Shown: positions 38,847-61,691 of the stretch, one piece after another | How positions within the stretch are numbered: the stretch's first letter is position 1 | How the letters are laid out: each line of letters opens with the position of its first letter | NCBI RefSeq assembly: GCF_038025025.1 | Contig: NW_027117344.1 | Coordinates: forward strand, 1,736,001-1,800,000 | Reading direction: 5' to 3' | From: Phyllosticta citribraziliensis | Lineage: Eukaryota | Length of the DNA: 64,000 bases | Position numbers and translations under genes: made by a program | The notes under the pieces: model-generated | Told to the model about the DNA's origin: nothing | The model's input: the letters and a program-made list of their open reading frames with translations, nothing else | The model's database searches: none

Positions 38847-39850
38847 TTACTCGATCTCCAACAACTCTTTCAGGCGATGTATTTCGACGTGGTCCCTTCA
38901 CTTGGTTAGCAGAAACCATAGACGGCCCGCAGTGCTCAAAGCATACCGGAAGTGTTTCATGCGATTACACCAGATCACCTCCTCGTTTTCGAAGAGAAAT
39001 TCTCCGCCAATCTGGAGCCAGTGACCGCTTTTCATGGCCGCCTTGACGCCTTGTTTTGACACCTGCTCGTTGGCCTGGACCATTTGACCGTAAATCCACT
39101 TTGGAATTGAAATGTCTTTCATGTAGTCTGGTCGCTTGTTTCCAAAGTCCATAGTCCAGGACATGCCAAGCGCGTGGTACAGCGCTCGTGTGGGGTCGGC
39201 ATATATGGGAAAAGGACAACCAGTGTACTCTTTGTACGGGGTAATCATATTCGTACCTCCACAGCCGATGACGGTGATTGATGTCGGAATCGGCATAGTG
39301 AAGTATGACTGTGGAGTAATGGTTTTGGTCAAGGCTTTCAAATAGGCTTGACATGCCTTGTCAGAGTTAGAAGATGCATGAATGGAGTCAGAGAGGGCCA
39401 ACCCACACCGCAGTAGAAATGTCGTACGAATATAATCAATTGTCTTTCACCTATTGCTGTAGGTCCACTCCAAAGGCTTCCAAATGATCTGGGCTTGTTG
39501 TCTTTGTCGTATACGGGAATCTGGCTAACGGTTTCGAGAAAGCTCCGGCCAGGACAGTCAACGGACACGTTTACGTCTTCGCGAAATTTGTTGAAGTAGT
39601 CGTCATAGTCAAACTCTTGCGTGTTCTCCTCAAACCGGACGTGATTGTGACCATTACACTCATTCGATCGACAACTCGGATGGCTAGTTGGCGCGGTACT
39701 GTGGGTGTCGTTCGAGTCCCGTCCTGAACTTGAAGGAGGTTCGAGCAAATCCGAGCTGTCGTCAGAGAGTGGCATCACATGGCGGTAGCGATGGTGGAAG
39801 AATTCCATGTCGGATGAAGACGATGAGGACCACCGCGACACGGGTGTCAT
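38847..39850 (-). CDS. AhpC/TSA-like thioredoxin-fold protein (PRXL2/AAED1-like); exons 39850-39407, 39356-38947, 38895-38847
   Basis: Spliced: LIIFVRHFYCGACQAY (CxxC)...ITVIGCG...PFPIYADPTRALYHALGM...QIGGEFLF...WCNRMKHFRDHVEI. Start codon uncertain. Confidence 0.85.
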
Positions 39851-42398
39851 CGCGGACCGCCCGATGGAGGTTTGATGGATGGGCGAAGGGTGCTTTGAGA
39901 GGGCGCCGCAGCGGTTGCGGCTATGGAATATGATAAGACTTGGGGATATTATCCGTCAAGAGTCATCCTGGTAAGCGCAAGAGGGGATAGATGAGGGGAA
40001 CGTGCACATGGGAGAGCGAGGAGCGGTTGGACAAGGCGGCGGGTGGAATTTGCCCAGAATTGAATGATCCCAGCAGCCTAGGACACAGATCCCAGCAACC
40101 AGGGCGTTTCTTGCTCGGGAATGTCATAAGCAATACACGGCAGCAGACCTGAGAGAGGGCTGGCCGGGAGGCGCGGCGGCGGCGCTGCCGTCGTCGTGGC
40201 CGTGTCACCGCAAAAAGTCGTCTTCTGCAGCTCGCCACGCAACATCGGGCCCTCCGACATGGCGCGTTTTCTACATGCGGCTGAGGGGCCAGTCAGATTG
40301 AGCGCCGGACTTCCAGTCTCAGAAAGGTTGCACTGTAATCGGAAGGCAAGCAAGGGCACACAGAGTTGGCCCTGACCAAGCCCGCGGCTCTCGGTGTTCG
40401 CGGTCTGGAGGAGAGGGTTGCTCTGTTTCAACGACCGCTCGGCAGGGTGATTGTCGCAGAGCAGCCACAAGGACGAGCCTTAGCATCGGACAGTCTCTAG
40501 GATGGTCCCGGGGCGAGTAGAGTTGCTGCGCCTGGCGTGCAGCAGGGCCGTCAATGACAGCCGGCGGAGCACTGTGGCACCCCGCATGGAGAGGAGAGCA
40601 AAGGCCGGCGACACACACGAGAGCGCAGGGACGTTGCATCGGTCGATGGACGGTGGATGGCACATGAGGTTGTGGTGCGGGACAAGGAGCAGCCGGCAGA
40701 TCCGCCCACGTCCCGCTGGGTCCCCGTCCCCGTCCCCGCCGTCGAAATGTGTCCGAACTTACGTCATGCCCATCCATCCCATCGCGACCCCCGATCCCAA
40801 TCGCGCTTCACTTCATTCGTCCCTTAACCTTTGACTTTGTGCCTCCGCAATCTGATCCGTTCTCGCGGTCCCTCGTCCAGATTGCCAACCCTGCCCAGCT
40901 CAGGTACCGTTTTGTCGACGACGCCAGCGGCAGTCGCCCGCAGCCGCCGTCAATACCAACGAGGCTGCAGACACGACATGCAGTCGCCGCCATTAGTAGA
41001 GCTGCCCACAGTGGTCGAAATCCAATCATCGTCGTCACAGCGCTTCGGCTGCCCCGCTGATTACTTTCCATTGCAGTTCCAATGTCCAAGCAACAACAGC
41101 CGACGAAAAATACCCTGCCGTTGTCATGACAAAAATCGGGAGCCAAAACCTGGATGGCCGTCGTATAGCCGGAAATGCTACTGGTCTCTGTAGTTCCCGG
41201 ACTCAACACCTGAGCCGCTTCGGATTCTCACTGCCACATCTCTCCTCTCCAAGGCCAAGCACAGGAAGCCTCCCTTTTCGCAACACAGGCAGTGTACCGA
41301 GCTTCGTGTTTCCAAACAACCTAGCAAAAGTCAACGGATAGATATCCAGCGGCTGATCCCACGCCCATGACCCTGCCGGCCTCCAACACTCCTCAGTCCG
41401 CCCTGCCCCCAAGGCTCCGATCGAGCATGAGTGGAATTCCACACGGTTTGCTGGGTTGTGGATCACCACGGCAAATTGGAGACTGCGCTGCTGCGCAATT
41501 TTCTCTCCAAAAGCTGTTCAAACACAGCAACCGAGAGCGTCGCGCGACTCGCAGTCAAGCCATTCAATTGCAACCATGGACAAAAACGTCATTTTACGAT
41601 CTTGCTGCCAACCTATGATCCTCTTGGAATACGGGAGGACATGCAAGATAGACGTTACGTCCAGCCGTGAGTGGATTACGCCTCCTTGCCAGGATCTAGC
41701 CGTTGGTATCCGCGTCCGCGAGTTCCTCTTGTCCAGACTATCCCTGCTGCGAACATCTCAAAAATGGAAGACGCGAGCGAGCGCGAGACTCACAGGTTGC
41801 AGTGTGGCTTGTGGCAGACCATTTCGTTTGGCCTTGCTTTTGCGCCTGGAGGACCGACGCATTGACTCTTAGCTGGTCAACACCTCGACGCTCAAGATGC
41901 TTGCAAAGCCAGCGCTGACCAAACACGGCCTTTGAGTTTGCACAGCACTCAAGTTACGCAAAGGCCGGGTGAGTATCTCAGTGTCCATGCCAGTTATTTT
42001 CGTTTTTTAAATCCGTCATTCCCGGGCGGAACCAGTCCAGCCGCCTCAGGCATAAGAGGTGTTGTACATTTCAGAGTTTCGGAGCATGTCCCCAACAGAA
42101 TTCGGTTAGTCTCCCCCTTCGAACGCGTCAGTCCATCATCCGAACTTGAACAGGCCAGTTTGCGATGGGTCAATCGAGCACACCCTACATGCTGACTCCA
42201 TGGCGTAGCAATTATCCGATGGAACAGTCTGGAGATCAGCGACTACAGTGCACCCACATCCTCGACTCTCATGAACGACACGGTTGCGCGGTTGTGATAC
42301 GTTCATTTTCTCAACCATTCCAGTCTATTTGTTTCTATTTTCCCGGTCTACCTGGACGTCAGACCCGCGATCCAAACCAGGCACAACACATCGCACAC

Positions 42399-45062
42399 CT
42401 ACGCCACAAGTTTCGTGCCATTTTCCTTTGTGGCGAAATCAAAGAGACCTTGCAAAAGACTCTGTTCGCCGTCTGCAAGCGGCCATCGGACAAAAACTCC
42501 CGGCTTACCCCACGGAGCATCCAACACAACCGCTTTCCCTGGCTTGTAGAGAGCACCTGTCCAAAGGTGCTTGAATCTGACGCCGCTGTCAACCTGAGCG
42601 CCTACGCTGTTGAGCTCGACCTCTGGCAACTGGACGGACAGCTTTTGATCTGTCACGTTGTAGACGGGTGCAATCAACAGCGCCTCGCCAAACCAGAACA
42701 CCTCATCCACAACAGCCGAAGCGACTGTGCCGTTGTTGCTGTAAACCACTGGATGTCTCTGCAGCGGCCATCCCTTCTCCTGATACTCTTCCATCAGAGC
42801 CTTGCGGTAGTCCTTCAGGCTGCGGAACAGGCGCGAGTTGTACGCATGATACGCTAATGTTGTCGAGTTGGTGTAGGTCTGCGCGTTGACTGATGGAATG
42901 TTGCCCTCGTGGGTACGGAACGCCGCACCACTAAAGGCACCGAGCTCACCCCAGCGTCCAAGAAGCGCCGCCGTCCGCGTGATGTTGTACACCGGCGACA
43001 AGGTGTTGGTGTATCCGCCAACGTCACTGTGCGAGTGGCCCCAGCCGCTGAAGCCTACGTGAAGAGTCGCGCTGACCGACGACCTCATTCCATCTTCGCG
43101 CGTTGCGTCGATATTTTGATCTCCAACCCAAAACAAGTTGGTGTAGGGAGCGCTCCAAGTGGATGCGCTCCTGTGGAATCCAACGGTATCGTTCGCCCGA
43201 CCGACCTCTTCGGTGGCCTCTCGCAAAAGGCGAGCCCACTCTCCTGGATACGCATTGTGGAAGACACGGGGATCCACGTTGCCAGAGGAGATGGACACGG
43301 AGTCGTCGACAGCCAAGTACTCGCCAAAATCTTGCATGGCACCCGAAATGGGCACGCTGTAGTACTGTTCCTTGAACAAGTCCTTGAACCACTGGACAGT
43401 GGTCTCGTTTGAAATATCCAAAAGACCGGCATCGATGCCCGGACCGCTGGTTACTGTCCATGGAGTGTCGTCGCCGGTCGTCGCATTGAGGACAAAACGC
43501 CCCCCAGCCTTGGCCTCATCGTAGAAGGATCTTGTGTACCCGGTGCTCTTGCTGCTGACATTTGCCAGGAAAGTGTTGACGTAGCTCATGGTCCGGACTC
43601 CGTACGTGTCCCAGAGATGCGGCACCCAGTCACTCCACGTAGGATACAGTTCTTGATCGGCTTCCCAGTTCCACCAGAGCCTGCTCAGAGAAATGTTGAA
43701 GGCCCCCGATTGGAGGCGGGTTCCAGACCAGTCCTGTAGCCAGACAGCAACGAGCGGCAGGCTCGCATTCTTGGCCGCCTTCACGATACCTTCGACCTTC
43801 TCTTGCCCGCCTTGGATACCCAGGATCGCGCCGTCGTGTACCCAGTCTGGCAGACGGGGCTGGCGTCCGGTAATGCTGGTGAGAGCTCCCACAGCCTCAA
43901 GCAGCGGGTTACCCTTCTCAACCTTGCCAACGAAGCCTTCGACCGTCGGACCTTCGTACACAACCTCAATCGTTGCTCCAGCGGTCGCCGAAAGGTCGCC
44001 GTCCTGGTTCTCCCCAGCCACCGCGGCGGCGGCCGTGTCTTTCAGCGTCCTCGCCGGCTTCTGGCTCGCCAAATCCACAACCGCGAACGCACTGCCGCTC
44101 AGCACCCACAGGCGTCCGAGGCTGCTAACCCACGTGCCGACTGCCGTGTAGGCCGTCAGCGCGGAGCCTCCTGCAAAAGTGCCCGCGACGGAGGGGTTGC
44201 CATTCAAATAGTTGGAAACGAGGTCAGTACCGCGTCCGACGCCGCCTTCACGGCTCCAGACCGGAATGAGGCGCCCACGCAGATTTCCGAGCGATGGCTG
44301 CGCACCGAGACCGTAGAAAGCTTCATCCGAGGGGGATGCGAGGGCGATGTGAGTGTTGACGTTGAGCGGCTGGTCTGTGGAGTTTGAAGAGGCGGAAATA
44401 GAAGCATTGAAAGCAACAACGCCCGAGGGCGAGGAATCCGAGGGCGCCAGAGACAGCGTCCAGACGTAGGACTGGCAGTGGGCTGCCGTGTCCTCAAAAT
44501 GGCCGGAAAGGCTGATCTGGTTCGATGCGGCCTGGGTGGTGCTGGTCAAGACGGGCGAGGTGCAGGGAGCCGAGAGCAGAGTTGCGTCGATTTCAAAGTT
44601 TCCAGACGAGTCGGTGATGTTGGCTTGGCCGGTAGACACGGTGATGAAGGGGCGGTCCGACGGTGCTGCGAGGCAATTGTCAGCCAGCTGTCATTGACAT
44701 GCCAAATATTGCAGCCTTCTCAGAAGAAGCAGAGAGCAACAACGCCAAAACACTCCACCTGTACCGGTGCAATATTACTCACTTTTCCACACCTCGGCTC
44801 CGCCGCTCGTGAGCACCTCGAAGGACGGCGCGCTCTTGTTGACGCTCACACGAAAGTCGCCCAAGCTGTAGTCCTGAACAGTGCCGGTCGAATTGGTGGT
44901 GGCATTGGTCGAAGTCAAGGCCGCCGCCGCCGAGCGCACCCATGACTGCGCGGCCGCTGCCAGCACAGCTTGATACGGTAGCACCATGGCTATCCCCAAG
45001 GCAGCAAAAAAACGAAGCCAAAAAGGAACGACAGTAGTAGTGGTGGGCGACGCGACACGCAT
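42399..45062 (-). CDS. Secreted glycoside hydrolase family 31, YihQ/sulfoquinovosidase-like; exons 45062-44783, 44665-42399
   Basis: Motifs SREGGVGRG, LGIQGG, VWLQDWSG, SRLWWNW, MQDFGEYL (nucleophile Asp), WVGDQN (acid/base Asp), HSDVGGYT, FRTHEGN. Hydrophobic N-terminus and many NxS/T sites. Intron 44782-44666 (GTGAGT...GCTGAC...GCAG). Confidence 0.9.
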
Positions 45063-45677
45063 GCACAGCCAGGCCAAAAAAATTGACTCAGCAGCAGGGA
45101 AACAAGGTGCGGCTCAAACAAAGAGTCCTTTTCCAGAAAAGAGCCGCATCGATCGAGTTAATATGTACCTGGACCAATGTATGTCGTTTTCTTTTCCCCG
45201 CCGGCCGGCGGCGCCTCGCCTCGGTAATAATCTACAGAAAAGTAGGCATCTATCCGTACGAGGTGACGACTGACGAGCGACAAGCCCCAAGCGACCGACC
45301 GACCGACCGCTCTCTTCATTCCGGGCCTTCATTGCGTGCTTCGCTCCGACGACCAACGAAGCACGCCATACGTACATGCATGGTACCTACTTATCCATTA
45401 CTCGGCAGCGCCCGCGGGCCCGCAGCAGATGATTAACTAGGTACCGCTACTCTACTCCTGCAGTCGAACATACCGCGGGAACACTCAATTAATTCGGTCA
45501 AGGCAGCCTCGCTCGCTCGCTTTCATGTCCCCCCGCCCGCAGTTAGTTAACAAACAGACTAACCCCAGGACTACGCCGAATGGGCCCGGGAAACCATCAT
45601 CCGTCGCAGGCGAGTAGTAGTGGGTGGTGGTACCAAACGAGTTGCCTATCTCGTCGTATGGCCCGGCCCGATGACGA

Positions 45678-46721: not shown

Positions 46722-49700
46722 TTAAGCATCGTCGTCACTGTCGGGCGGGTGCGGGGTGCCCTTGGGGCTGTTGAGCCACTCGATATGGCGCAGCCTGCGG
46801 CGGACCTCGCGCTCCTTCTGCTGGGCACGGGTGAGCTTCTTCTTCTTCTTGGCCTTGAACTTGAGCTCGCCGCCGGCGTTCTCAGCCTCCGAGTTGACGG
46901 CGGATGCGGCGGCGCTGCTCGCGGCGGTGCTGGCTGCCGCGCTGGCGGCCGCACTGCCCTCGGGCGTGCCCTCGAAGCGCGACGCGTCGACGGCGTTGTT
47001 GAGCTTGGACACGACGCGTCCGTCGGCGACGTGCCACTGCTCGGGGCACAGCGCGCCAACGAACTCTTCGTTGTGAGAAATCATGACGACACCACCCTTG
47101 AAGTCGCGGATGGCAGCTGCGAGACCGCCCATCGAGTCGCGGTCCAAGAAGTTAGTCGGCTCGTCGAGGACGAGAATGTGCGGGTTGTTCCACATCTGAG
47201 AAAACGTCAGTCGGATCATCATGGCATTCACATGGGTTGAATAAACTTACCGCGCCAGCGATAACGACCTTGACCTTCTGACCTCCAGAAAGACCGCCGA
47301 TCTCATTGTGGTTCGCAATCTCGGGGTCAAGACCAAGATCATCAAAGTGCTGGGAAATGACCTTGGGCTCGAGCTGTCTGTAACCAAGACCCTCACGCGA
47401 GGACTCGTGGTCGTCAAACTCCTGGACCAGCTTTTGGAAACCCAGCTCGAGCAGCGTCTCGCGAGAAATCATCGTGTTGTACTTGGGCAACCAACCGACC
47501 CACTTGACCTCGTACTGGAAACTCTTCTTCCACTTCTGACGACCAATCAGAGCCTCGATATTTCTGGAGCCCTTGCCGTCTCCAATATCGATTGGCTTGG
47601 CCATCTGTGCCTTGTCCTCTTCGGTCATGATGCGAGTCTGCTTCATAAACACTTCGCGGTCGTCACCGTTGGCGTAACGCCACTGCAGATACTGGTTGGG
47701 TGTCTTCTCCATGTGCATCTCGACGTGCTCCAGGGCGTGCTGCTTGATGTATCCAATACGCAGGTTGGGGTGCTTCTCGACCCGGCCTTGCTGGGGAATG
47801 ACCTCGCCCGTGAGAATCTTGATGAGCGTGGATTTACCAGCACCGTTGGCGCCAATAATGGCCACACGAGAGGAGAGCGTGAGGGAACAGGTGACATCGT
47901 GAAGAGATGGCTTAGTAGAGCCCGGGTACGTGTAAGTGCAGTTGCTCATGCGGAGAATGGCACGCGTGTTGGACTTGACACCAGTCAAGATACCTGGAGG
48001 CGGGAACTTGAATTGAACCTGCAGGTTGGAAAGCGTGTAGTAGCTCTTGGCCTCGGGCTTCTGCTTGACAAACTCGGCCAAGTTGCCCTTGTAGCAGACG
48101 AGCTTCTTGTTCTCGTAGTGGTAAATGTCGGTACACACTGCGTCCAGGAAACTCGAGTCGTGGGATACGATCAAGCTGGTAATCTCGGTGTGGCTCCTGA
48201 GATACTCCTCGACCCAGGCGATGTTTGCAACGTCCAAGTGGTTAGTCGGTTCGTCAAGCAAGAAGACGTCGGCGCGCATCAACATGGCACGAGCAAGAGC
48301 GAGCTTCATCTTCCAACCACCAGAGAGAGAGCCGACCTTTTCAAATTGGCGACCTTCGGGGCCAGCTGTGAAACCGACTTCCTCGAGAACTTGGGAGATG
48401 CGCTCCCTACTCTCGTCCTGGAATCTGGGGTCGTTGGAAATGTACTCCAGGATGCTCAAGTCGGCATCCTCGCCCTGGTTGTGCTCGACGAAGCAAGTCC
48501 TGACCTCGTCTTGGGGAGGGAAACCTTCAAGCTTGCCTTCGGCGATACTCCTCATCAAGGTGGACTTTCCAGCACCGTTGCGACCACAGAGACCGTAGCG
48601 ATGTCCCTTCAAGAGGCGGAGGTTGGTGTGGGAAAGGAGAAGCATACCACCGTATCCAAGAGAAAATGTGGCGTTGACGATTTCGGTCTCGCCATCATCC
48701 TCCTGGACAGGCTTTCCAAACTTGCGCTCATCTTCCTCGACAAAATGTTGGTGGACGGATTCGGCAATGGGCGAGGCAGCGCCCTCCTTGACGAGCTGCC
48801 GGATGTAGGGCTCAATGTTGCTGACGACGCGCTCAAGCGCACGCTGGTTGACGTCCTCAGCAACAATTGCTGAAACGTAGGCGCGAACAAACTTCCAAGT
48901 ATCGCTGTCCCCGGGGTAGTTGAGAAGACCACCGTTTGCGCCAACCGCCTTGTCCAGAACAGCACCAGCATCCTCAGCCTCGGTGTGTCCGGCAGTTCCA
49001 TTTGCGGTGTTGTCGCTGTCCTCTCCCATTGCGTGACTAATCGTGGCCACGGCACGGGACGCAATTTCACGGACTTCTGGGAGAGAGGCGCGGTTCTTGA
49101 CACCCTCAACACCAGGCTTGAGCTTGGGCAAGAAAGTCCTGGCCTCGACTGGGTCATGGACAAGCTTGGTCAAGTTCTCAACAACAACGCAAGTTTGGCG
49201 CAACACTTCCTGGCTGGTGGTGGGGTTGTTGAGGGCACGCTCCAGTGGAGGAGTAAGGAGCGCAAGCACAGGCGAAGTAACAATAGCGACAAAGGTGGTC
49301 ATGGACAAGGCGTGAATGGCCTTGAACAGATTCTCCGTCGCAGGATTTTCCATGTACTTGAGCAAAAGAGGGATCTTGGGGCCGACGTCGTCGTTCTGGA
49401 GCAGAGTCGTGAGGGAGGCCATGGCCTTGTTGGCTTGTTTCGAAACTTCGGACTTGAGGTCGTGCATGCCCTCCTCCACAATTGGGATGAGACCAGCCAA
49501 CTTTTTGCCCATGGCTTCGCGCAAAATGTCCTTTTCCTTCTCGGCTTCGAGGCTCTCCATTCCCATCTTGGCCTTATCAGCCATCTTGGTCAGCAGCACG
49601 TAGGCGCCGACAGCACCCTGCCACTTTCCAGACCGCTTTGCGAGATAGTTGGAGAGCACTGGGAGTAGGCCGTATACGTAGGTCTCTGCCTTGAGACTGG

Positions 49701-50148
49701 CGAACATGGTGTCCAGGGCGTACTGCGCACCATCCCTGATTGAGGAGTTTTTGTCCGCGAGCGCGTCCAGGCAAAGAGGGATGATGTTTTCCTCCTGCAG
49801 AAGAAGGACGACTTCGTTGATGGGCTCTGAAGGGGGAAGCCTCTCGATTGTGGCGCCGATGGCGAACATGGCACCCTCCCTTCTAGCGACATCCTTCTTG
49901 TTGACAGCCGCCTTCTTGACCTCGTCGAGTATGCCATAACCCTTGAGTCCGCGGAAACCGACCGAGTTCTGCAGGAGGGTGCACAGCGCGTAGGCGGCGT
50001 CGAGCGAGGCCTGCGAGGTCTTGCTGGCGAAGATTGTGTTGAGGATTGCAGAAACTTCATCGGCGGTGGGCGGGACGGCGGAGGACGGGTCGGCGACCTT
50101 GGGGACGATGGTGGCAGAGGCCATGGGAGGAGATTCTTGGTGGGGCAT
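46722..50148 (-). CDS. NEW1: eEF3-family ABCF ATPase New1/Elf1; intron 47250-47196
   Basis: HEAT-like N-terminus, two ABC cassettes (GRNGAGKS/LSGGWKMK/LLDEPTN and GANGAGKS/LSGGQKVK/VLDEPTN), chromodomain insert YEVKW. The tail KKKKKLTRAQQKEREVRRRLRHIEWLNSPKGTP is New1-type rather than YEF3-type. Confidence 0.92.
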
Positions 50149-50966
50149 TCCTGGGTATCAGTCTAAAATTTTGATTTTATTCTTGTAGGGCGAAAAGACG
50201 GGCTTCGGCTCCTGTTGTCGTTCTGCTCGGCAGCAAAGGCTGAAGTCGGGCGCGGGCGCAAAGGCGGACGAGGGGGCGAGTGCGACGAAAAGCACTCGAA
50301 GCGCAGGAGCAGCGCCGAAGCAGAGGAGCAGAGAGGCGGATACAAAGGCCCGCGAGGTGGAGTGGAGAGTTCCCAAACAAAAAAGAAGCGTGAAGAGAAA
50401 GGGTGAAAAGGTGGGCGGGAGGGCGACGGAATTTCTTTAGGCTGCGGCGGCGACCAGGCCCCAAAAAAGCGGACCAAAGCCAAATCGCTCTTCTTGCACG
50501 TGCAGGGATCTGGGCTGAGCCTGGGCTGGCGTCCGGTAGGGCTGAACCGAAGAGCTGAGCTGCCGCCGTCGCTGTCAAGGCCGCGGCCACGCCGACTCAA
50601 CATTTCAACAATACCTTCATAATGCCATCCTCATTGTTGTGGTCTCGGAACTCCTGTCTCGATTACTTCGCCATCCCACTCACCACCACCCATGACTGAT
50701 GCTCCATCATCTGCCCGCCATATGGTCTCGCTACACGCGCAATGTCCACATCACCAATGGTCGTTTTGCATTACTCATGACGATTCTGATCTGCTAACCG
50801 CAACCCCAGCTGCCAAGGCAAAAAACACAAATGACAAACGACAAGCAAGAACCGGAGGCCGTGAGGAGCTGATGTAAAAGGAATCTTGAAAGGGAATCTG
50901 AAGAGTGAGTGGTCCAGCCATTTCTACTTCTGGCTCTTGTGTGGCCAGACGAATTCTGTCGGTGGC

Positions 50967-53056
50967 TTAGAAAATGGTGCCAAAGTCCTCGTTGACAGTC
51001 TGAAGCGTCTCCAACGGCTTCCTCGGACTGGCAGGCTTGCCATTCTCGTCCGTGGGTTTGCGGTGCCTGTTTCAAGTCAGAATAATCCGTCAAGTCATCC
51101 CTCGGACTCGAGACAAACCTGAAGGTGAACCCGACAAACAAGCTCTTCCCCATCTTCTCGTCCCTTTCGGCCAGGCTCTCCAACGCCTGCTGCTTCTCGT
51201 ACACCTCCTTGTATTTGGCCATGTCCGCCTCGCTGCCAAAGTCGTCGAAATACCCTGCATCCGTCTCGCTGTCCAACTCCGGTACAAAGGGTGCCTTTTG
51301 CTCGCGAAGCTTGCTCCAATCCACCTCTGCAAAGTACATGTGGCTGTGAATCTCCGAGATGCCCTTGAACCGCTTCGCCTTGGACGCCACGAGTCGAATG
51401 ATCAGGTCCCAAGTGCGTTTGCTCAAGAAATAGTTCGGATCCTCGTAGACCGGCTTCTTGAGCACTTTGGTCCAGTTTTTGAGATTCTGCCATGTCTCGT
51501 CTACCGTGGCGCCGGCGAAGGGTGGGTATCCAGCCAATGCTTCGAAGAGCATGCATCCGAGCGACCAGTAGTCCACGGTGAAGTCGTATTCCTCGCCCTT
51601 GAGAACTTCGGGGGCCATGTAATCAGGACTGCCGACGATTGACTTGGCGTAATTGACCTCGCGTTCGCGCAGGGAGCGGTATCCGTCGCGACGCTCAGCC
51701 GCCGTGCGCTCTTCCATGGGACGACCAAAGGGCACGGCGACGTTGCCAACAGACTCAAGCTTGACGCGCATGGATTCAATCTTCGCAGGGGCCAGCATGC
51801 CGGCTGCAAGACCAAAGTCTGTCAGCTTGACGTGGCCGGTGCTGTCGATCAAGAAATTCTCTGGCTTCAGGTCGCGATGGATGTAGCCGAGTTGGTGGAG
51901 CGAATCAACGCAGCAAAACATTTCTGCAATGTAAAAGCGTGCGTGTCGGTTGTGAAGGACTCCGGTGTTGTTGAGCAGGGTGCGGAAATCTCCACCGGGT
52001 ACGTATTCCTAAAAGCAATCAACCAACGCCGTCCGAGTCGGGCATGCTACTCACCATGGCTAGATAAATGCTCTTGTCGTCTTGAAAGGCGTAAAGCAAT
52101 CGGACAAGCCACTCGCTCTTAGCATTGGTCAAAATGTCACGCTCGGTCAGCACGTGTCTGACCTCGTCAAGCTTGAACAAGAGCTTCTTGCTCATGACCT
52201 TGAGCGCGCAGACCTCTCGAGTGTCCTTCTTCGTTGCAAGATAGACCTGTCCATAGCCGCCTTGTCCGACCTGCGTGAGAATCTGAAAGTCACCATGGCG
52301 CAGCCTCGTGCGGCGCTTGCGCAGATTGGCGCGCTCCCGGCCGAGGTACACTTGGTAAGCCTTGTCCCATTCCGGATCAGTGACGCCCTGGGGCTTTGGG
52401 TTTTGAGCATGAAATTGTGCCAAGCGATTTTGGCGGTTGTGGACGTAGGAGAGCAGGTCGTAGTAGTAGTCGAGGAAGTCTGGTTTTGTCAGCGTCGAAA
52501 GCATGTGGGACGGTGCAAGCTTACACAGTTGCGTCACGTTGGCCAATCGTCGAACGGCCGGCTTCTGAAGCTTCTCCCTGTCTTCGGGCGAGAGACCCCA
52601 TTGCACATTCTTTCCAATCGAGTCGGCGCGGTTCACTGCGCGGTATGGCTCCTGGCGCGAGGCAGCGGCGTGTGTCAGGTGGCTTTCCTTCTGCTGCAAA
52701 GCGGGACGGGTGGGAGGAGAGTTTTCCTTGTTTCCCTTGCGCGTCGGGCTTCCACTGCCCTCGGAGGCGTGATCTCCATAATTGTGCTTGGTGGGCGAAG
52801 TTGGCGAGCCTTGGACAGGGCGGGCGATCCTGCTAGGAGCGCCCACGGTCGGCTGCAGCCTCAGGGCGCTGTCAAAGACATTTGGTAGGTCTGTTGCTCC
52901 CGGGGGCACATGGTGTTTGCTTGGGCTTCCCTGTGGCGTGAGGCTTGGGGAGCAAAATGGATTGGAAGTCGGAGTCTGCGGACGGTCGTACATGTCGTTT
53001 GCCATGCGATGTTGGAGGGATGAGGGGAGCGGAATGTTGGTAAAGGGTTGGTCCAT
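50967..53056 (-). CDS. DBF2: NDR-family Ser/Thr kinase Dbf2/Sid2; three short introns
   Basis: VRRLANVTQLYFLDYYYDLLSY...YLGRERANLRKRRTRL...FQILTQVGQGGYGQVYLA...HRDLKPENFLID...DFGL...SIVGSPDYMAPE...DAGYFDDF...LFVGFTFRHRK...DFGTIF*. Confidence 0.95.
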
Positions 53057-54411
53057 GGTGGGCAGCAGCTGAGGGGGGTGAATGGGTGTCGAGCGGGGCA
53101 CAGCGACGCGGCGTGGGCGTAGTGGCGAGCGCGTCGCGTCTGGTGATGGTGATGGCGATGGGCAACGACACGACTGCGGCGGACTGAAGGGAGCAGAGAC
53201 AGAGGTTCGGAGGAGAGGAGACAGACGGGGCCAGACGAGGCAAGGCGGTCGCAGCAGGAGCGGGCTGATGTAGAAGTTCGATTGTTTTGAGATCAACACA
53301 CGCCCCAGGCCCTAGCAACGCATCCAGGGCATGGAACTGCATGCAAGCTTGGACCTCCCTGCCAGCACCACCTCAGCCGTCCCTGTTCCTCCACGACACG
53401 TCCAATCATCCATCCGTCTCTGTCTGCGGCTTGTTCGAATTCCAAAGGAGCGTGTTCATGACATGTACCTGCGCTGCGCTGCATAGCAGCAAGCGACGGC
53501 GGGGAAGACGACGCCACCTTATGATCGACCGGCGCGCTCCGAACTCGTCGTGTGGGGAAGTCTGCCCGATTGTTGCGCATATGGCCATTGATAACATCCC
53601 ATGTATGAGCTGACACGAATAGATCCAGCTCTCAACGGGACAGTCTACTTGGGCACTCGAGACCCGTAGGCTGGTGATGCAGAGAGCAGAATGACGCCGC
53701 TACATGTATTCGAGTCTGCCACTTGACTCCAAGCAATTTCCCAATATCATGCAACGTCTCGGACCAGTCCGAGGGAGCATTGAAATACCTCGACATTCCA
53801 CGCCCGTGACATTCTGACTGTCATAGACAGCAACTCATTCCACCCGAAGCCTGTCTCGTACTAGACTGGACCGAGGATGGCACCTTGTCGCGTGGCGACA
53901 GGCGAGACACATGGAAGACCCTGCCGCTGGTGGACCCTGAACAGAGGTGACATTGGCACATAAGCCTCCATCTCATTGCTCAATGCCGAATCCAAACCCA
54001 ACACGCTTGTTGAAATAGATCCATCATGGTGCACATGTCGGAGCTGTCTCGGAGAGCGGTCACAAACGCTCCGCGCGCATCAAATGGGCTCGTTCCAACA
54101 CGGGGCTTTTTAACCCACCGACGCGTTAAGCTTGGCAAGATGCACGGCAATGGGAGATGTAGGTATGATGGAAGCAGACGGCATGGTGAAGCAGGTTCGG
54201 AATACATACATGTAGACATGGCCTGGCGGCGGTTGAGGCACTGGGCCGTTCCGAGAGCCGCGGACTGGCCGCCCTCCGGCTTTTCCCGGCCAAATTTTGG
54301 GGTTGGGGCCTCGCGACCTTGCAGAGCTTCAGAGATATTCTCTTTCCTCATCGTCCAGCTCCTCACCGTGGTCTGAATCCTTGACGAGGTGCCAATTCCA
54401 CTGCGCCCACC

Positions 54412-56126
54412 ATGCTCAAGCTCCGCTCAATCGCGCGCCCCACTGCCGAGGCCGTCGTCCGCCCAGCACATGCCCGCTCGGCCGCCGTCCCCGCCTTCAT
54501 AGCTTCCAGCTCATCCGCCATCTCCCTCTCCGCTGCCCCGCGCTCCCTCCAGACCTCCGCCCTCAGGACTCCCTCCAGATTCTCCAAAGCAAACGCCTTC
54601 CGAACCTTTGCTACCTCTTCCAAGATGGCTGCCAACACCCGCGCCGAGACCGATGCCTTTGGCGAGGTCCAGGTCCCCGCCGACAAGTACTGGGGTGCCC
54701 AAACCCAGCGCTCTTTGGGCAACTTCAACATCAACCAGCCTCAGGACCGCATGCCTCCTCCTATTGTGCGCGCCTTTGGTATTCTCAAGGGTGCTGCAGC
54801 AGAGGTGAACATGCGCTACGGCCTCGGTAAGTTTCGACGTGCTGCTCCACCAACCCTCGGGCTAATATCTGCAAGACCCCAAGGTTGGCAATGCCATCAA
54901 GCAGGCCGCTCAGGAGGTTGCCGACCTCAAGCTCATCGACCACTTCCCTCTTGTCGTTTGGCAGACTGGCTCCGGTACCCAGTCCAACATGAATTCCAAC
55001 GAGGTCATTTCCAACCGCGCCATCGAGATTCTGGGCGGCACCATGGGATCCAAGAAGCCCGTCCACCCCAACGACCACGTCAACATGTCCGCCTCCTCCA
55101 ACGATACCTTCCCCACCGTCATGCACATTGCTGCCGTTCTCGAGCTTGAGGAGCAGCTCATCCCCGCCATCCAGAGCCTGCGCGACGCGATAAACCAGAA
55201 GGCTGAGACCTTCCAGAACTTGATCAAGATTGGCCGCACCCACTTGCAGGATGCTACGCCCCTGACTCTCGGTCAGGAGTTCTCTGGATACGTGACCCAG
55301 CTCGACTATGGCATTGAGCGTGTAAAGTCGGCCCTGCCGCGCCTGCGCATGCTTGCTCAGGGTGGCACTGCCGTTGGCACTGGCATCAACACTTTCAAGG
55401 GCTTCGCCGAGGGTATTGCCGAGGAAGTGTCCAAGGCCACTGGCCACGAGTTCGTGACTGCCCCCAACAAGTTTGAGGCTCTCGCAGCCCACGATGCCAT
55501 CGTCGAGGCTTCGGGACAGCTCAACACTCTGGCCACTTCTCTGTACAAGATTGCCCAGGACATTCGCTTCCTCGGATCTGGTCCTCGCTGCGGTCTCGGT
55601 GAGCTTAAGCTGCCTGAGAACGAGCCTGGCTCATCCATTATGCCCGGAAAGGTCAACCCGACCCAGTGCGAGTCTTTGACCATGATCTGCACGCAAGTCT
55701 TTGGCAACCACTCCACCATTACCTTCGCTGGCTCGCAGGGTAACTTTGAGCTCAACGTGTTCAAGCCTGTCATGATTGCGAACCTTCTCCACAGCACCAG
55801 GCTGCTGTACGACGGCATGAGGAGCTTTGAGAAGAACCTGATCCATGGTCTAGAGGCGGACGAGAAGAGAATCGCCTCCATTATGAAGGAAAGGTTAGTA
55901 TTCAATTGTCCCTATTGTGATTAGTCGCTGACCAAAGATTAGTTTGATGCTAGTTACTTGCCTCAACCCCCTCATTGGCTACGACATGGCCTCCAAGGTT
56001 GCCAAGAACGCCCACAAGAAGGGAATCACCCTGAAGGAATCTGCCCTTGAGCTCCAGGCTCTGAGCGAAGCTGACTTTGACCGAGTCGTCCGTCCAGAGC
56101 TCATGATTGCTCCCAAGGAGATTTAG
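54412..56126 (+). CDS. FUM1: Fumarate hydratase class II with mitochondrial presequence; exons 54412-54826, 54876-55893, 55943-56126
   Basis: [48 protein letters not shown], signature [18 protein letters not shown]-rich N-terminus. Confidence 0.98.
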
Positions 56127-57041
56127 CAAGCAAGAGGCAGGAGATAATGTAAAAAGCATTTCGTGATGCATACGTCTGAGAGAATCTCATCCTGAACATA
56201 GCGGCCTCATATAAGAATTTGCATACAAGATAGTTCCTGGACGGTTTCTTCAGCTTGTTGGGCCAGAGGTGTCAACATCGCGTCTTTTCTTGCACTCAGT
56301 TGCAACCTGAATTTCAGATGACTCACTACACTAGCGTATACAGAGCGATAGGAAGTTACAAGGATCATAGCCACCTTGCTGACGACAATAGGGCATTCTT
56401 TCAACGAGCAAGGAGAGCTCACAGTGGATAGCGGCTAGGATTCCACATGTAACCGCTTAGCCGCTCAGGCAGACCGGATGCGTTCCTGATCAAGGAAAAC
56501 CAACCGGAACACAGTCTCTGTTCAGACGGAAGACGCTAACGCTAACGACCATCCCTTGAGAAAACGATTGATTGGATTGGATTTGCTACGTCTAGTACTT
56601 CTATGCTATCTGACTCTGAAAGCTGACGCGGTATGCTAAGCGGGGTATTGCCAGTTTCGGCCATGCGAAATCGGGGACCAGTCCAGACGCCTCACCGCTT
56701 GCATCGTGGAAGCCTCGACTGCAAAGCCCGCAATCTTTGCACTATCACCGAATCTCAGATACCAATAGATTCATTGTGATCCCTTGCTGACATATCCGCA
56801 GTCGTCTCCGCACCCCGTGGGGCAATTTGCCCCGCGTCGCTCTTGGCGGAAACATTTCTTTGAACTTTTTCGCTGCTTGCAATTGGCGTCAAACCAACCG
56901 CTCTCCTCATTTGGAAGCTGATCCATCGTCCTGGTGATTCCTGTTGCTCTTTTGAATTGATACCTCGTTCCCCATGGGACTCTGGCATCCATTTTCTCAG
57001 TTTCTTCATCAGAGTCATTAGAACGACACGGAGATCCAAAC

Positions 57042-58651
57042 ATGGCGCAGTCATTGGGCCATTTCTTTGAAATTGAGGAAGCCAAACCTCCAAAGACCAT
57101 CGCCGAGCCGGGACGGGCTCGCCGCAAGTCATCCTCCATTCGCTCTCCCACGAACCAGGAGCTCGACTGTCTAGCCTTCGGAGACCGCCTTGATGGACCG
57201 CACTCCACGACGACCCGTAGCGGCTACCAAACGCCTCAAAGCGGGCCATTGGGCTCGCAGTCCTTCACTGGTGTGCAAACTCCCAAGACAAATGACCTCG
57301 AGGCTAGCCACCCACCTACGCCTATCCACAGCAACGCGACGCCCCTGGCTGCAACCTTTTGGAACCCGCCCATGAACAAGTGGCGCGTCCTCTGCGCGTG
57401 TGTCGTCTATTTTGCCAACGGCCTCAACGACTCGGCACCTGGAGCGCTGATCCCCTTTATGGAAGAGTCTTACCATATCTCGTACGCGGTGGTGTCGCTG
57501 ATTTTCATCACCAACGCCGCAGGCTTCATTGCCTGCGCCTTTTTTACCGACGTACTGCTTAGCAAGCTCGGGCGTGCATCGACGCTAGCGCTGGGCGAGG
57601 CCATTATGCTACTCGGCTACATCATTCTGGTCTGTACGCCTCCATGGCCGGCAGTCGTCGCGGCCTTCTTCCCACTAGGATTTGGGTATGCCATTAACTT
57701 GGCGTTGAACAATGTCTTTTGCGCCAACCTTTACGGCTCCACAATCATATTGGGCTTCGCTCATGGCAGTTACGGCATCGGTGGCACTGTGGGTCCGATA
57801 GCTGCCACAGCCATGGCATCTCACGGCATTGTTTGGTCGCGATTCTACTTTCTCCTTCTTGGCACCCGTCTCATCTGCATGCTGTTCAACACGTGGGCTT
57901 TTTGGAACTACGACAAAGAGACCCCATCGCCGCTGCTCGTTGAGCTTGAACGCCTTGGAAATACGCGGGGTGCGGCGTTGGATTCTGAAGAGGTCAAGCA
58001 GCAAAACTCCAAGAGGCGGTTGCTGAAGCAGGCCCTCCGCAACCGCACCACAATCATTGGCGCCTTGTTCATCTTTGCGTATCAGGGGGCTGAAGTCGCT
58101 GTTGCGGGTTGGGTCACTTCCTTTCTGATCAAGTACAGAGGGGGTGAGGCCGGGCAGGTTGGCTACGCCACAGCCGGTTTCTTTGTAAGTGCTTCCTTTC
58201 ACTCTCCATTCCACGCCACGGCTCTAACTCCATGTAGGCCGGGATCACAATCGGCCGTTTTGCCCTCGCGCCCATGGCACATCGCTTCGGCGAGCACCCC
58301 TCGGTCTACGTCTTCATCGTCGGGGGCATAATCCTGCAAATTCTGGTGTGGCAGATCCCCAACCTCGTGTCCAACACGATCTTGGTCGCTTTCCTGGGCC
58401 TTACACTCGGCCCCATCTATCCCTGCGTCCAGACCATTTTCTCGCGCCTACTGCCCCGCAACATCCAAGTCCCTGCCGTTGGCTTCATTGCCTCGGCTGG
58501 TAGCAGTGGTGGCGCCGTCGCGCCTTTTATTACAGGTTTGATTGCGCAGGCGAGGGGTACTTGGGTCTTGCATCCAATCTGTATCAGTCTTTTTGCGAGT
58601 CTGATAGGCTGCTGGTGGGCGTTGCCAGCTGTGAGGAAGAGAACTGATTAG
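57042..58651 (+). CDS. MFS transporter (Bsc6/fucose-permease-like); intron 58185-58237
   Basis: GLNDSAPGALIP, ISYAVVSLIF, HGSYGIGGTVGP, FAYQGAEV, GITIGRF, GPIYP, GSSGGAVAPF; about 12 hydrophobic segments. Confidence 0.9.
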
Positions 58652-59942: not shown

Positions 59943-61691
59943 CTACCTTAGAGACAAGCCCCTTAAGCCGGACTGACCTCGCCTTCTTTGTCCTCTCGAC
60001 TTTACTGGCCAACGCGCAGCTTCCGAAGGCAAACGACGCGGGATAACAATCGTGTCGACCGGAACTTTTGACAACGCCAACCCAGTTCGATAGCCCACCA
60101 ACACAACTTTGACCTTTGTAGAGACATGGTGTGTGCGAAGCGATTCCAAAAGACCGCCGAAGATGTCGGGCCAGGATGGCTGATTGGCTTCGCGGAGGCC
60201 CATGGCCTCAACATCAATAACGAAACAGAAATCCTTCAATCCATTCAAGGCGTGTCCCAGCAGGCTGAGCCACTCGGCCTCTGTGCGTGCGCTGTGAAAC
60301 TTTGATGCGCATATTGCTGCTGACTTTTCATTCAGCAGAGCCTGGTTCTGCGTGAGCACCTGGGAGACGAGCCCTTTCAGCACATCGACAGCCGTGTACT
60401 CTTGCGGCCTTTTGCCATGCTGCTGCAGAGCCCATGCGACGGGGATCGAAGTCTCGCGGACGAGTTCGATCATGTCGACGGTGAAATCCTGCGCAACATG
60501 GCGACTTGAATAAGAGCCCAAGACGAGGACCATGGAAGACTCAGGATTACTTCCCCACGACTTCAGCGTTTTGGAATCTTGGAAGATCGACATGTCTGTC
60601 CCCCTCCGCCGCCGTCTCGGATTTCTAGCCGAAGCGTAGAACAGAAGCGTTTGGTCGGGACTTTGGCATGACGATGAAGCCGTGAACGCCATTATTTGCG
60701 ACAGTTGCATGTCACACACTCTCTGGTTTGTGTCCACTATCCCCGAGTACTGCAACTTGTGGTATCCTACTGATTGTCAGCAGAAATGTAAAACAAAAGA
60801 TAACTCTGCTGACCGTCTAACGCCAGACTCATTGCCTCTGTTATTGTCTTCAACTGGCGCAACTCCAGCCTCGTCTCTCGCAGCTCGACGATGCTCATAG
60901 TAAAGGCAAGTCGATGGATCTTCGCAACCTGGACCGTGATGTCGTCGACCAGATCCTGGAACCGCAAGCTATATGGACGGCCAATAGCTGACAAGGCATG
61001 TTTTAACTTTTTCTGACGATACCAAGAAGCGGCTCGTGTTGCAAATCCAATAATGCGCACGTACAGTGTGGTCGCCAGTTCGACCATAGTGTCCGTTTGG
61101 TATAAGAAAAGGTAGAGCTCGGTTTGTGGCAACGCGTCCGCGATCTCGCACATTGCCTTAGCTAGCTCTTTGATCAAAGTGTCTTGATTCAAGACTCCCT
61201 GTGATCTCTGCATCAGTCTTGAGATCCAAGGGTTGTCGTCGCATGGGAGCCTCCGACAAAAGGAAAGATTTACCATGAAAACGAACTTGAAAGCGCCCCA
61301 CACCAAAGAGACGTACTCTGGATGATGTTGCACCAGCGCATCCAAGACCGCGCCGTACAAATTTATTCGCGAAGACAATTTTGTCAACCATTTGCGCGCC
61401 TTCGACTGAGTCTTCGCGTCGTAAACAAGTTTCGCATTTTCGACAGCCTGCTGGACATGATCGATCGACGCCTTGTCCTCAAGCCAAATGCGCTTGCATT
61501 CGTCATTGGTGAAGTCCGACTTGAAAAGGCTCACAGCCTTATCGAACGCTCTCTTGGCGGCGTCATTGGAACTTCACCATGAGCAAATGTCATGTTGGCG
61601 CAAGAGACTGGAATGCTCACATATTCGACAAGATCCGTTTCAAAAGGGGAGATTTCGAATCGCTTGGCGGACTGAGCACAGAAGAAGACAT
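59943..61691 (-). CDS. NACHT-associated helical-domain protein (HHPEYVSLxWG family, DUF7708-like) with degenerate NTPase-like region; ~4 exons
   Basis: KARKWLTKLSSRINLYGAVLDALVQHHPEYVSLVWGAFKFVFM...LAKAMCEIADALP...LYQTDTM; later WGSNPESSMVLVLGS...IPVAWAL...FCFVID...VKVVLVGY. An upstream exon splices in at GTGAGC (~61620). Start uncertain (61691 or 61751). Confidence 0.75.

Follow-up and report, generated by a model that had tools for sequence, protein, structure and literature searches.

A predicted, probably secreted sulfoquinovosidase of the YihQ type in Phyllosticta citribraziliensis and its homologs in fungi and Phytophthora

Gene structure and transcription

A 64,000 nucleotide (nt) stretch of the Phyllosticta citribraziliensis genome on contig NW_027117344.1, called the window here and numbered from its first letter, carries on its minus strand a gene of glycoside hydrolase family 31 (GH31). 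The gene probably encodes a retaining alpha-glycosidase of the YihQ/SmoI sulfoquinovosidase type, and the predicted protein is most likely secretory. Translation of the minus strand over positions 42300–45200 shows a single long frame that holds all seven motifs named in a first-pass annotation of this DNA (GIQGG, WLQDW, SRLWW, MQDFGE, GDQN, SDVGGYT and RTHEGN). The frame ends in a TAG stop at 42399–42401, which is the end that the annotation had given. The annotation gave the gene as 42399..45062; it missed an intron of 117 nt, and its start at 45062 probably lies 75 nt upstream of the true one. The likely coding sequence consists of two exons and one intron, runs from 44987 to 42399 and encodes 823 amino acids (aa).

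Exon 1 (44783..44987, minus strand) begins with an ATG at 44985–44987 in the context gccATGg and encodes MVLPYQAVLAAAAQSWVRS... with three N-X-S/T sequons. The intron (44666..44782, minus strand) is a canonical fungal GT..AG intron, with GTGAGT at 44782, a CTGAC branch-like site, a CAG that ends at 44666 and two in-frame stops; its limits are given by the sequence, by RNA contigs from a relative and by the junction of the public gene model. Exon 2 (42399..44665, minus strand, with the TAG stop) encodes an N-terminal beta-sandwich, the GH31 (beta/alpha)8 barrel and C-terminal beta domains. The exon-2 protein used in most comparisons (P0001) has 754 aa and covers 42402–44663 of the minus strand, and the motifs start in it at positions 282 (GIQGG), 308 (WLQDW), 327 (SRLWW), 443 (MQDFGE), 514 (GDQN), 546 (SDVGGYT) and 583 (RTHEGN). 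Exon 1 read from the upstream ATG was kept as a separate sequence (P0002).

Several observations bear on the start codon. A public 823-aa P. citribraziliensis protein (P0326), 100% identical to the exon-2 protein, starts at 44987 and uses the same splice junction, and the second ATG is the start in all six full-length Phyllosticta models compared. The ATG at 45062 has a poor context, with T at position −3. The alignment with the RNA contig of the relative breaks upstream of 45012, where 8 of the next 24 letters differ and the sequence is T-rich, as against differences of 7–10% in the coding parts. Position 44987 is therefore taken as the likely start on the basis of the public models, the ATG context and the loss of RNA-contig similarity upstream of 45012. 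The in-frame extension of 25 codons at 44988..45062 (minus strand, from the ATG at 45060–45062) is T-rich and if translated would add 25 very hydrophobic residues rich in Phe, Leu and Val. It is probably a 5′ leader, and the ATG at 45062 is possibly an alternative start in some conditions. The counterpart of this leader in the transcript of the relative is even more T-rich. The 5′ ends of the RNA contigs do not define a transcription start.

RNA sequencing contigs from two plant-metagenome runs of one study cover the gene with a difference of about 7.4% (167 of 2262 letters in exon 2), thus the contigs come from a close relative that is about 93% identical in DNA. They join 44665 to 44783 and leave out exactly the 117-nt intron. 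The orthologue in the relative is transcribed and spliced. RNA from P. citribraziliensis itself was not seen among the runs examined, which counts against an expressed gene in this species. Two further runs with no differences at the locus keep the intron, and their RNA label is only a guess; they are probably DNA and as such say nothing on whether this species expresses the gene. That the gene is a functionless relic, decaying or silenced, would fit the missing RNA of the species itself but is very improbable. The frame of 823 codons is intact with a canonical intron, protein identity to other Phyllosticta species is 92% to 98% with all key residues kept, and the orthologue in the relative gives spliced RNA. 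The gene is live, as seen from its intact frame and the spliced RNA of the relative.

Family assignment by sequence and fold

Pfam shows the GH31 TIM-barrel domain PF01055 in the exon-2 protein with an E-value of 4.3e-28. A comparison with the sequences of solved structures gives six best matches that are all sulfoquinovosidases, with E-values from 1.1e-83 to 7.2e-71. These are 6pnr (Eubacterium rectale, 1.1e-83), 8r56 (Bacillus BmSQase, 2.9e-77), 5aed (2.6e-76) and 5aee (both E. coli), and 5ohy and 5ohs (both Agrobacterium, 5ohs at 7.2e-71), with the names taken from the Foldseek titles. The next GH31 sequence is that of an ordinary member of the family at 9.7e-14.

A word-indexed search for homologs gave 280 proteins at E ≤1e-10 among 8000 scored candidates; homolog counts below use the best 120 of the 280. 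An AlphaFold2 model of the exon-2 protein was built on a 53-row alignment selected from these 120. The model shows a mean pLDDT (predicted local distance difference test) of 89.2 and a pTM (predicted template modelling score) of 0.92. In Foldseek the top ranks go to the sulfoquinovosidases of Bacillus (BmSQase), E. coli, E. rectale and Agrobacterium, whose target-normalised template modelling (TM) scores are 0.87–0.90 across some 740 aligned columns, as against about 0.65 for YicI-type and other GH31 enzymes. The GH31 architecture of an N-terminal beta-sandwich, a (beta/alpha)8 barrel and C-terminal beta domains is found by Pfam, AlphaFold2 and Foldseek together, and by both sequence E-value and fold TM score the window protein is nearer to the characterized sulfoquinovosidases than to any other characterized GH31 enzyme.

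Catalytic and sulfonate pocket residues

The first-pass annotation proposed that the Q-Q-R-W-Y signature of YihQ is complete in this protein, and named as refuting evidence a failure of these residues to align with the sulfonate pocket. The residues align and are identical. In the numbering of the 823-aa protein, and with all positions on the minus strand, Q353 of GIQGG (43812..43814) is equivalent to Q262 of YihQ, and Q379 of WLQDW (43734..43736) is equivalent to Q288, which recognises a sugar hydroxyl. The R-L-W-W segment (43671..43682) carries R397 and W400, equivalent to R301 and W304. In YihQ the sulfonate is recognised by these two and by Y508, the equivalent of Y620 of SDVGGYT (43011..43013). 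D514 of MQDFGE (43329..43331) is equivalent to the catalytic nucleophile D405, D584 of GDQN (43119..43121) to the general acid/base D472, and H654 of RTHEGN (42909..42911) to the substrate-binding residue H537. Q288, R301, W304, Y508, D405, D472 and H537 are described as critical residues of YihQ in a recent preprint, which also deals with the pairing of Q262/Q288 versus Lys/Glu (bioRxiv 10.64898/2026.02.11.705467).

Thus at YihQ positions Q262, Q288, R301, W304, D405, D472, Y508 and H537 the window protein is identical at 8 of 8 (QQRWDDYH). An alignment of 122 rows combined the best 120 homologs with the window protein and with E. coli YihQ, which was translated from the K-12 yih region. QQRWDDYH is present in 115 of the rows, and the other seven are incomplete models that depart from it solely by gaps at one or more positions. 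Neither the 53-row eukaryotic alignment nor a 7-row alignment that includes YihQ shows any change in the set, and the HMMER alignment agrees.

A wider set of bacterial relatives shows where the signature varies. A genome scan led by E. coli YihQ kept 80 loci that are all 72–100% identical and of Enterobacterales type or close to it; representatives at 50% identity were used for the tree instead. An exhaustive search of representatives gave 2350 proteins at E ≤0.001 and 530 at E ≤1e-30. A 171-row alignment joined 131 of 145 new 50%-identity representatives (those of 600–1200 aa) to 38 named eukaryotes, the window protein and YihQ. In it 57 rows display QQRWDDYH and 54 display QQQWDDYH. On inspection of the local alignment, Gln genuinely occupies the arginine position in many close bacterial representatives (GKQLWW, GSQLWW); at least three sister-group rows are misaligned there and do have Arg. 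The representatives with Gln for Arg include P0130, P0135, P0140, P0146, P0186, P0211, P0259, P0261 and P0265, some of which are sister to E. coli YihQ in the tree. The QQRWDDYH signature is therefore more than a by-product of family membership, since many close bacterial relatives have Gln in place of Arg.

Distribution and phylogeny

The nearest homologs are proteins of Phyllosticta species at 88–92% identity, or 98–100% within the 90% cluster. Among the best 120 of the 280, these are followed by Botryosphaeriaceae and Saccharata (61–66%), many Phytophthora (56–61%), a chytrid and Ustilaginomycotina. A second group at about 36–43% identity comprises Mycosphaerellales, Eurotiales and Purpureocillium, and then Mucoromycota. 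A metagenome scan of 80 loci showed one fungal-like locus (L082, 47% identity, on a 3.6-kb contig), with the rest bacterial at about 30%.

In a FastTree phylogeny of the 171-row alignment (686 columns) all named fungal sequences form one clade, which contains two Dikarya sub-clades, with Mucoromycota and chytrids outside them. Four of ten initially unnamed tree neighbours are from Blyttiomyces, Quaeritorhiza, Phlyctochytrium and Chlamydoabsidia. Two copies are found in the chytrid Quaeritorhiza haematococci (P0023 and P0127). One is situated deep among early-diverging fungi. The position of the other, within Dikarya clade 1 and between Ustilaginomycotina and ascomycetes, may stem from a second transfer, from contamination or from an artefact of the tree.

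Six Phytophthora sequences (P0011–P0016) form a clade that is sister to Botryosphaeriales and lies inside the ascomycete part of clade 1. This is seen in the FastTree phylogeny (support 0.99) and in an IQ-TREE phylogeny (Shimodaira-Hasegawa-like approximate likelihood ratio test 99), the latter being a quick search under LG+G4 with 34 chosen rows and 814 columns. The approximately unbiased (AU) test rejects a grouping of the nine clade-1 ascomycetes together without Phytophthora (p 8.8e-06) and a grouping of all 25 fungal rows together without Phytophthora (p 3.2e-10). The AU-test groups were named after the tree was seen, and long branches were flagged near the root. The Phytophthora genes are found on large contigs, up to 5.5 Mb, so contamination is unlikely. 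Thus the gene for this putative sulfolipid-cleaving enzyme was apparently transferred horizontally from a fungus to an oomycete. A further Phytophthora ramorum entry (P0018, 1289 aa) joins ABC-transporter domains PF00005 and PF01061 to the GH31 enzyme in its public model; it is probably a merged gene model, though it might point to a transporter gene beside the enzyme gene.

Features related to secretion

The N-terminal sequence was scored by the highest 9-residue Kyte-Doolittle mean within the first 40–45 residues. The window protein scores 2.58 when read from the upstream ATG at 45062 and 1.48 from the likely start at 44987; E. coli YihQ scores 0.44. The first-pass annotation had described a signal-like N-terminus. 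This is borne out strongly for the upstream start and only moderately for the likely one.

The homologs extend the comparison. A set of 98 full-length homologs consists of those among the best 120 that start with M and have 730–900 aa. The N-terminal score is at least 2.0 in 59 of the 98 and at least 1.6 in 81; as an internal control, residues 301–340 reach 2.0 in one of the 98. By eye, the N-termini of the Botryosphaeriaceae, Phytophthora and Dikarya clade-2 sequences resemble ordinary signal peptides.

The many N-glycosylation sequons reported in the first-pass annotation exceed expectation. The exon-2 protein displays 14 N-X-S/T sequons as against 5.9 ± 2.2 in 2000 composition-preserving shuffles, and 14 was reached in one of the 2000. 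With those of exon 1 the total is 17 in the 823-aa protein. The 92 homologs with an N-terminal score of at least 1.4 average 1.75 sequons per 100 aa, as against 0.44 for YihQ. Two Mucoromycota rows that have no hydrophobic N-terminus show densities of 0.68 and 0.40.

The exon-2 protein has only two cysteines, C103 (44562–44564) and C132 (44475–44477), which both lie in the N-terminal domain (44475..44564, minus strand) and form a candidate disulfide. The pair is kept in 88 of the 98 homologs, with eight rows lacking both cysteines and two having one. It is found neither in the two Mucoromycota rows nor in YihQ, which has 11 cysteines. The N-terminus, the sequons and the cysteine pair are indirect features that fit a glycosylated, disulfide-bonded secretory protein.

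Secretion of the Phyllosticta protein itself is less clear than that of its homologs. When read from the likely start it has no basic n-region and its hydrophobic core is moderate, and it shows the weakest signal-like N-terminus of the homolog set; both observations weigh against secretion. It may be asked whether a sulfoquinovosidase is made but not released, being kept in the endoplasmic reticulum, Golgi or vacuole, anchored by an uncleaved N-terminal segment, or cytosolic. Such a location would agree with the moderately hydrophobic N-terminus without a basic residue, with the hydrophobic stretch of about 28 residues from the upstream ATG, which is more anchor-like than a cleaved signal, and with the Mucoromycota homologs that do not display such an N-terminus. 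However, it does not account for the excess of sequons, the single conserved cysteine pair or the clear signal-like N-termini in Botryosphaeriaceae, Phytophthora and clade-2 homologs, and no hydrophobic C-terminal tail suggests a glycosylphosphatidylinositol anchor. Retention within the cell appears quite unlikely on this evidence, and secretion is the preferred prediction.

Four Mucoromycota homologs (P0118, P0119, P0121 and P0122) keep the full QQRWY pocket. P0118 and P0121 show no hydrophobic N-terminus, no cysteine pair and no sequon excess; P0119 and P0122 score 1.77–1.86 but display no obvious signal. The Mucoromycota homologs may be cytosolic forms of the same enzyme. There appears to be a split between predicted secreted forms in Dikarya and oomycetes and non-secreted forms in Mucoromycota.

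Comparison with characterized enzymes

E. coli YihQ (PDB 5AED/5AEE/5OHT) is the founding GH31 sulfoquinovosidase. It has the same fold as the window protein (target TM 0.89–0.90), the eight key residues are identical and both carry the Q-Q variant of the hydroxyl-binding pair, at an overall identity of about 31%. YihQ is a 678-aa protein with a non-hydrophobic N-terminus and few sequons, encoded within the yihO-yihW sulfoglycolysis cluster. The fungal protein differs in its length of 823 aa, a signal-like N-terminus, 17 sequons, two cysteines in the exon-2 protein, extra loops and the lack of linked pathway genes.

Agrobacterium tumefaciens SmoI (5OHS/7OFX), Bacillus BmSQase (8R56) and Eubacterium rectale SQase (6PNR) are among the best sequence and fold matches. 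All three are bacterial and operon-encoded. 6pnr and 8r56 show GxQGG, WxQDW and KRLxW motifs as in the fungal protein. SmoI is described with a Lys/Glu pair (bioRxiv 10.64898/2026.02.11.705467), whereas the fungal enzyme has Gln/Gln.

Eukaryotic homologs of YihQ are described from animals as predicted sulfoquinovosidases that keep the key residues, many with predicted signal peptides; the main text of that preprint makes no mention of fungi (bioRxiv 10.64898/2026.02.11.705467). The GH188 NAD+-dependent sulfoquinovosidases (SqgA), for which eukaryotic members are described in algae and plants, carry out the same proposed physiological reaction. However, they have an unrelated fold and an oxidoreductive mechanism, whereas the window protein is a predicted classical two-Asp GH31 hydrolase. 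In the literature that was covered, the sulfoquinovosidases of GH31 and GH188 are treated as bacterial enzymes that have algal and plant orthologues, and the release and breakdown of sulfoquinovose as mainly bacterial, with some algal and predicted animal enzymes. No description or assay of a fungal or oomycete sulfoquinovosidase was found in the literature searched, a search that did not extend to the founding and GH31-subfamily papers. Degradation of sulfoquinovosides is reportedly widespread across the tree of life. The window protein is best regarded as an uncharacterized, probably secreted eukaryotic member of the known YihQ-type kind.

Ordinary fungal GH31 enzymes, such as 6DRU and the AgdA and AgdB alpha-glucosidases, are secreted and glycosylated. 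The Aspergillus niger alpha-xylosidase 6DRU gives a TM score of 0.64–0.67 and 15% identity to the window protein. A. niger An07g00350 (agdG) is called an alpha-glucosidase in one expression table and may be the clade-2 homolog.

The first-pass annotation expected a generic automatic name for this gene. The identical public protein is indeed named only "glycosyl hydrolases family 31-domain-containing protein". The expectation does not hold for all orthologues, as "Sulfoquinovosidase" is already the automatic name of five of the best 120 homologs, from Lasiodiplodia, Phytophthora rubi (UniRef name), Pseudocercospora, Fulvia and Penicillium rolfsii, and also of one Phytophthora ramorum cluster member.

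Substrate and proposed mechanism

By homology, D514 would attack C1 of an alpha-sulfoquinovoside and D584 would serve as the acid/base. The 6-sulfonate would be held by R397, W400 and Y620, and the ring hydroxyls would be bound by Q379, paired with Q353, and by H654. The protein would most likely enter the secretory pathway, become N-glycosylated and be extracellular or bound to the cell surface. There, sulfoquinovose would be released from sulfoquinovosyl glycerol, or directly from the sulfoquinovosyldiacylglycerol (SQDG) of host-plant thylakoids, with glycerol or diacylglycerol left. The benefit to the fungus could equally be the lipid or glycerol part.

Some results count against sulfoquinovosides as the substrate. 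The NCBIfam equivalog model NF007746 (PRK10426) gives 459.7 bits, which is under the curated cut-off of 553. The model was built for the annotation of bacterial genomes, and this score lowers the case for an equivalog of YihQ and not that for membership of the wider clade. The characterized enzymes are all bacterial, from outside this eukaryotic clade, at an identity of about 30%. A tblastn search of the window with E. coli YihO, YihP, YihR, YihS, YihT, YihU, YihV and CsqR gave a best E-value of 0.07, and Pfam and tblastn together show no linked transporter or sulfoglycolysis gene in the window. On these results the first-pass annotation was correct in stating that no sulfoglycolysis genes flank the gene. 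Such linkage is typical in bacteria but not defining.

These same points would suit a GH31 enzyme of the YihQ clade that acts on something other than sulfoquinovosides, e.g. an alpha-glucoside that is anionic or carries some other modification at position 6, or unmodified alpha-glucosides of fungal or plant walls, with the shared residues a matter of ancestry. The public name "alpha-glucosidase", which most of the homologs listed bear, and fungus-specific insertions by the pocket, e.g. five extra residues between the positions of Q288 and R301, point the same way. The names are automatic, however, and no assay was seen behind them. From chytrids and Mucoromycota to Dikarya and oomycetes, none of the eight specificity and catalytic residues varies, although changes of the arginine are tolerated in other parts of the family, and ordinary GH31 enzymes are far more distant (E 1e-13, TM 0.65). 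A different substrate is thus considered unlikely, and a sulfoquinovoside remains the predicted one.

Possible role

A broader proposal is made tentatively: that fungi kingdom-wide, from chytrids (an algal parasite among them) through Mucoromycota to two Dikarya clades, make YihQ-type sulfoquinovosidases, that Phytophthora gained its gene by transfer from a Botryosphaeriales-like ascomycete, and that the Dikarya and oomycete forms are secreted. If this is true, eukaryotic plant-associated microbes, beside bacteria, would also open the sulfoquinovose cycle by extracellular attack on thylakoid sulfolipid. They would then supply sulfoquinovose or its sulfur to a eukaryotic route that is yet to be described, or take the diacylglycerol and pass the sulfo-sugar to bacteria. 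A conserved and probably secreted enzyme of this kind would bring leaf pathogens, endophytes and litter fungi into the sulfoquinovose cycle, and plant pathology would gain a new class of enzyme that targets host lipids. It also raises the question of eukaryotic use of free sulfoquinovose.

The gene stands out from routine annotation in four respects: the full pocket is conserved kingdom-wide, there is an apparent division into secreted and non-secreted forms, the gene was apparently transferred into Phytophthora, and the released sugar poses the question of its fate. The interest is limited in that a published signature predicts the activity, automatic annotation has already given some orthologues the name and the mechanism would be nothing new. 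A test of the activity would be cheap, since substrates, inhibitors and activity-based probes are already available for enzymes of this class.

Genomic surroundings

Pfam scans were made on 49 chosen stop-to-stop open reading frames, taken from those of at least 110 aa between 28.7 and 64 kb of the window. The 2.4 kb between the stop codon of the GH31 gene and its nearest downstream neighbour contain only low-complexity open reading frames with no family matches. That neighbour is an AhpC/TSA_2 protein (38898–39955, minus strand); an Ipi1 ribosome-biogenesis protein and a DUF1348 protein are also found on the downstream side.

On the upstream side, the most distant of the genes identified encodes a DUF7708 protein (60770–61573, minus strand). 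An MFS transporter (56961–58648, plus strand) is situated 12 kb upstream of the GH31 gene, and no link to the GH31 gene was found for either of these two, which lie at 12–16 kb from it. Nearer are a Lyase_1 enzyme (54385–55921, plus strand) and an AGC protein kinase (50797–53311, minus strand), both identified by Pfam. Directly beside the GH31 gene is translation elongation factor 3 (47155–50157, minus strand), a single 1001-aa frame with HEAT repeats, two ABC domains and a chromo-like insert, which is an ordinary fungal housekeeping gene.

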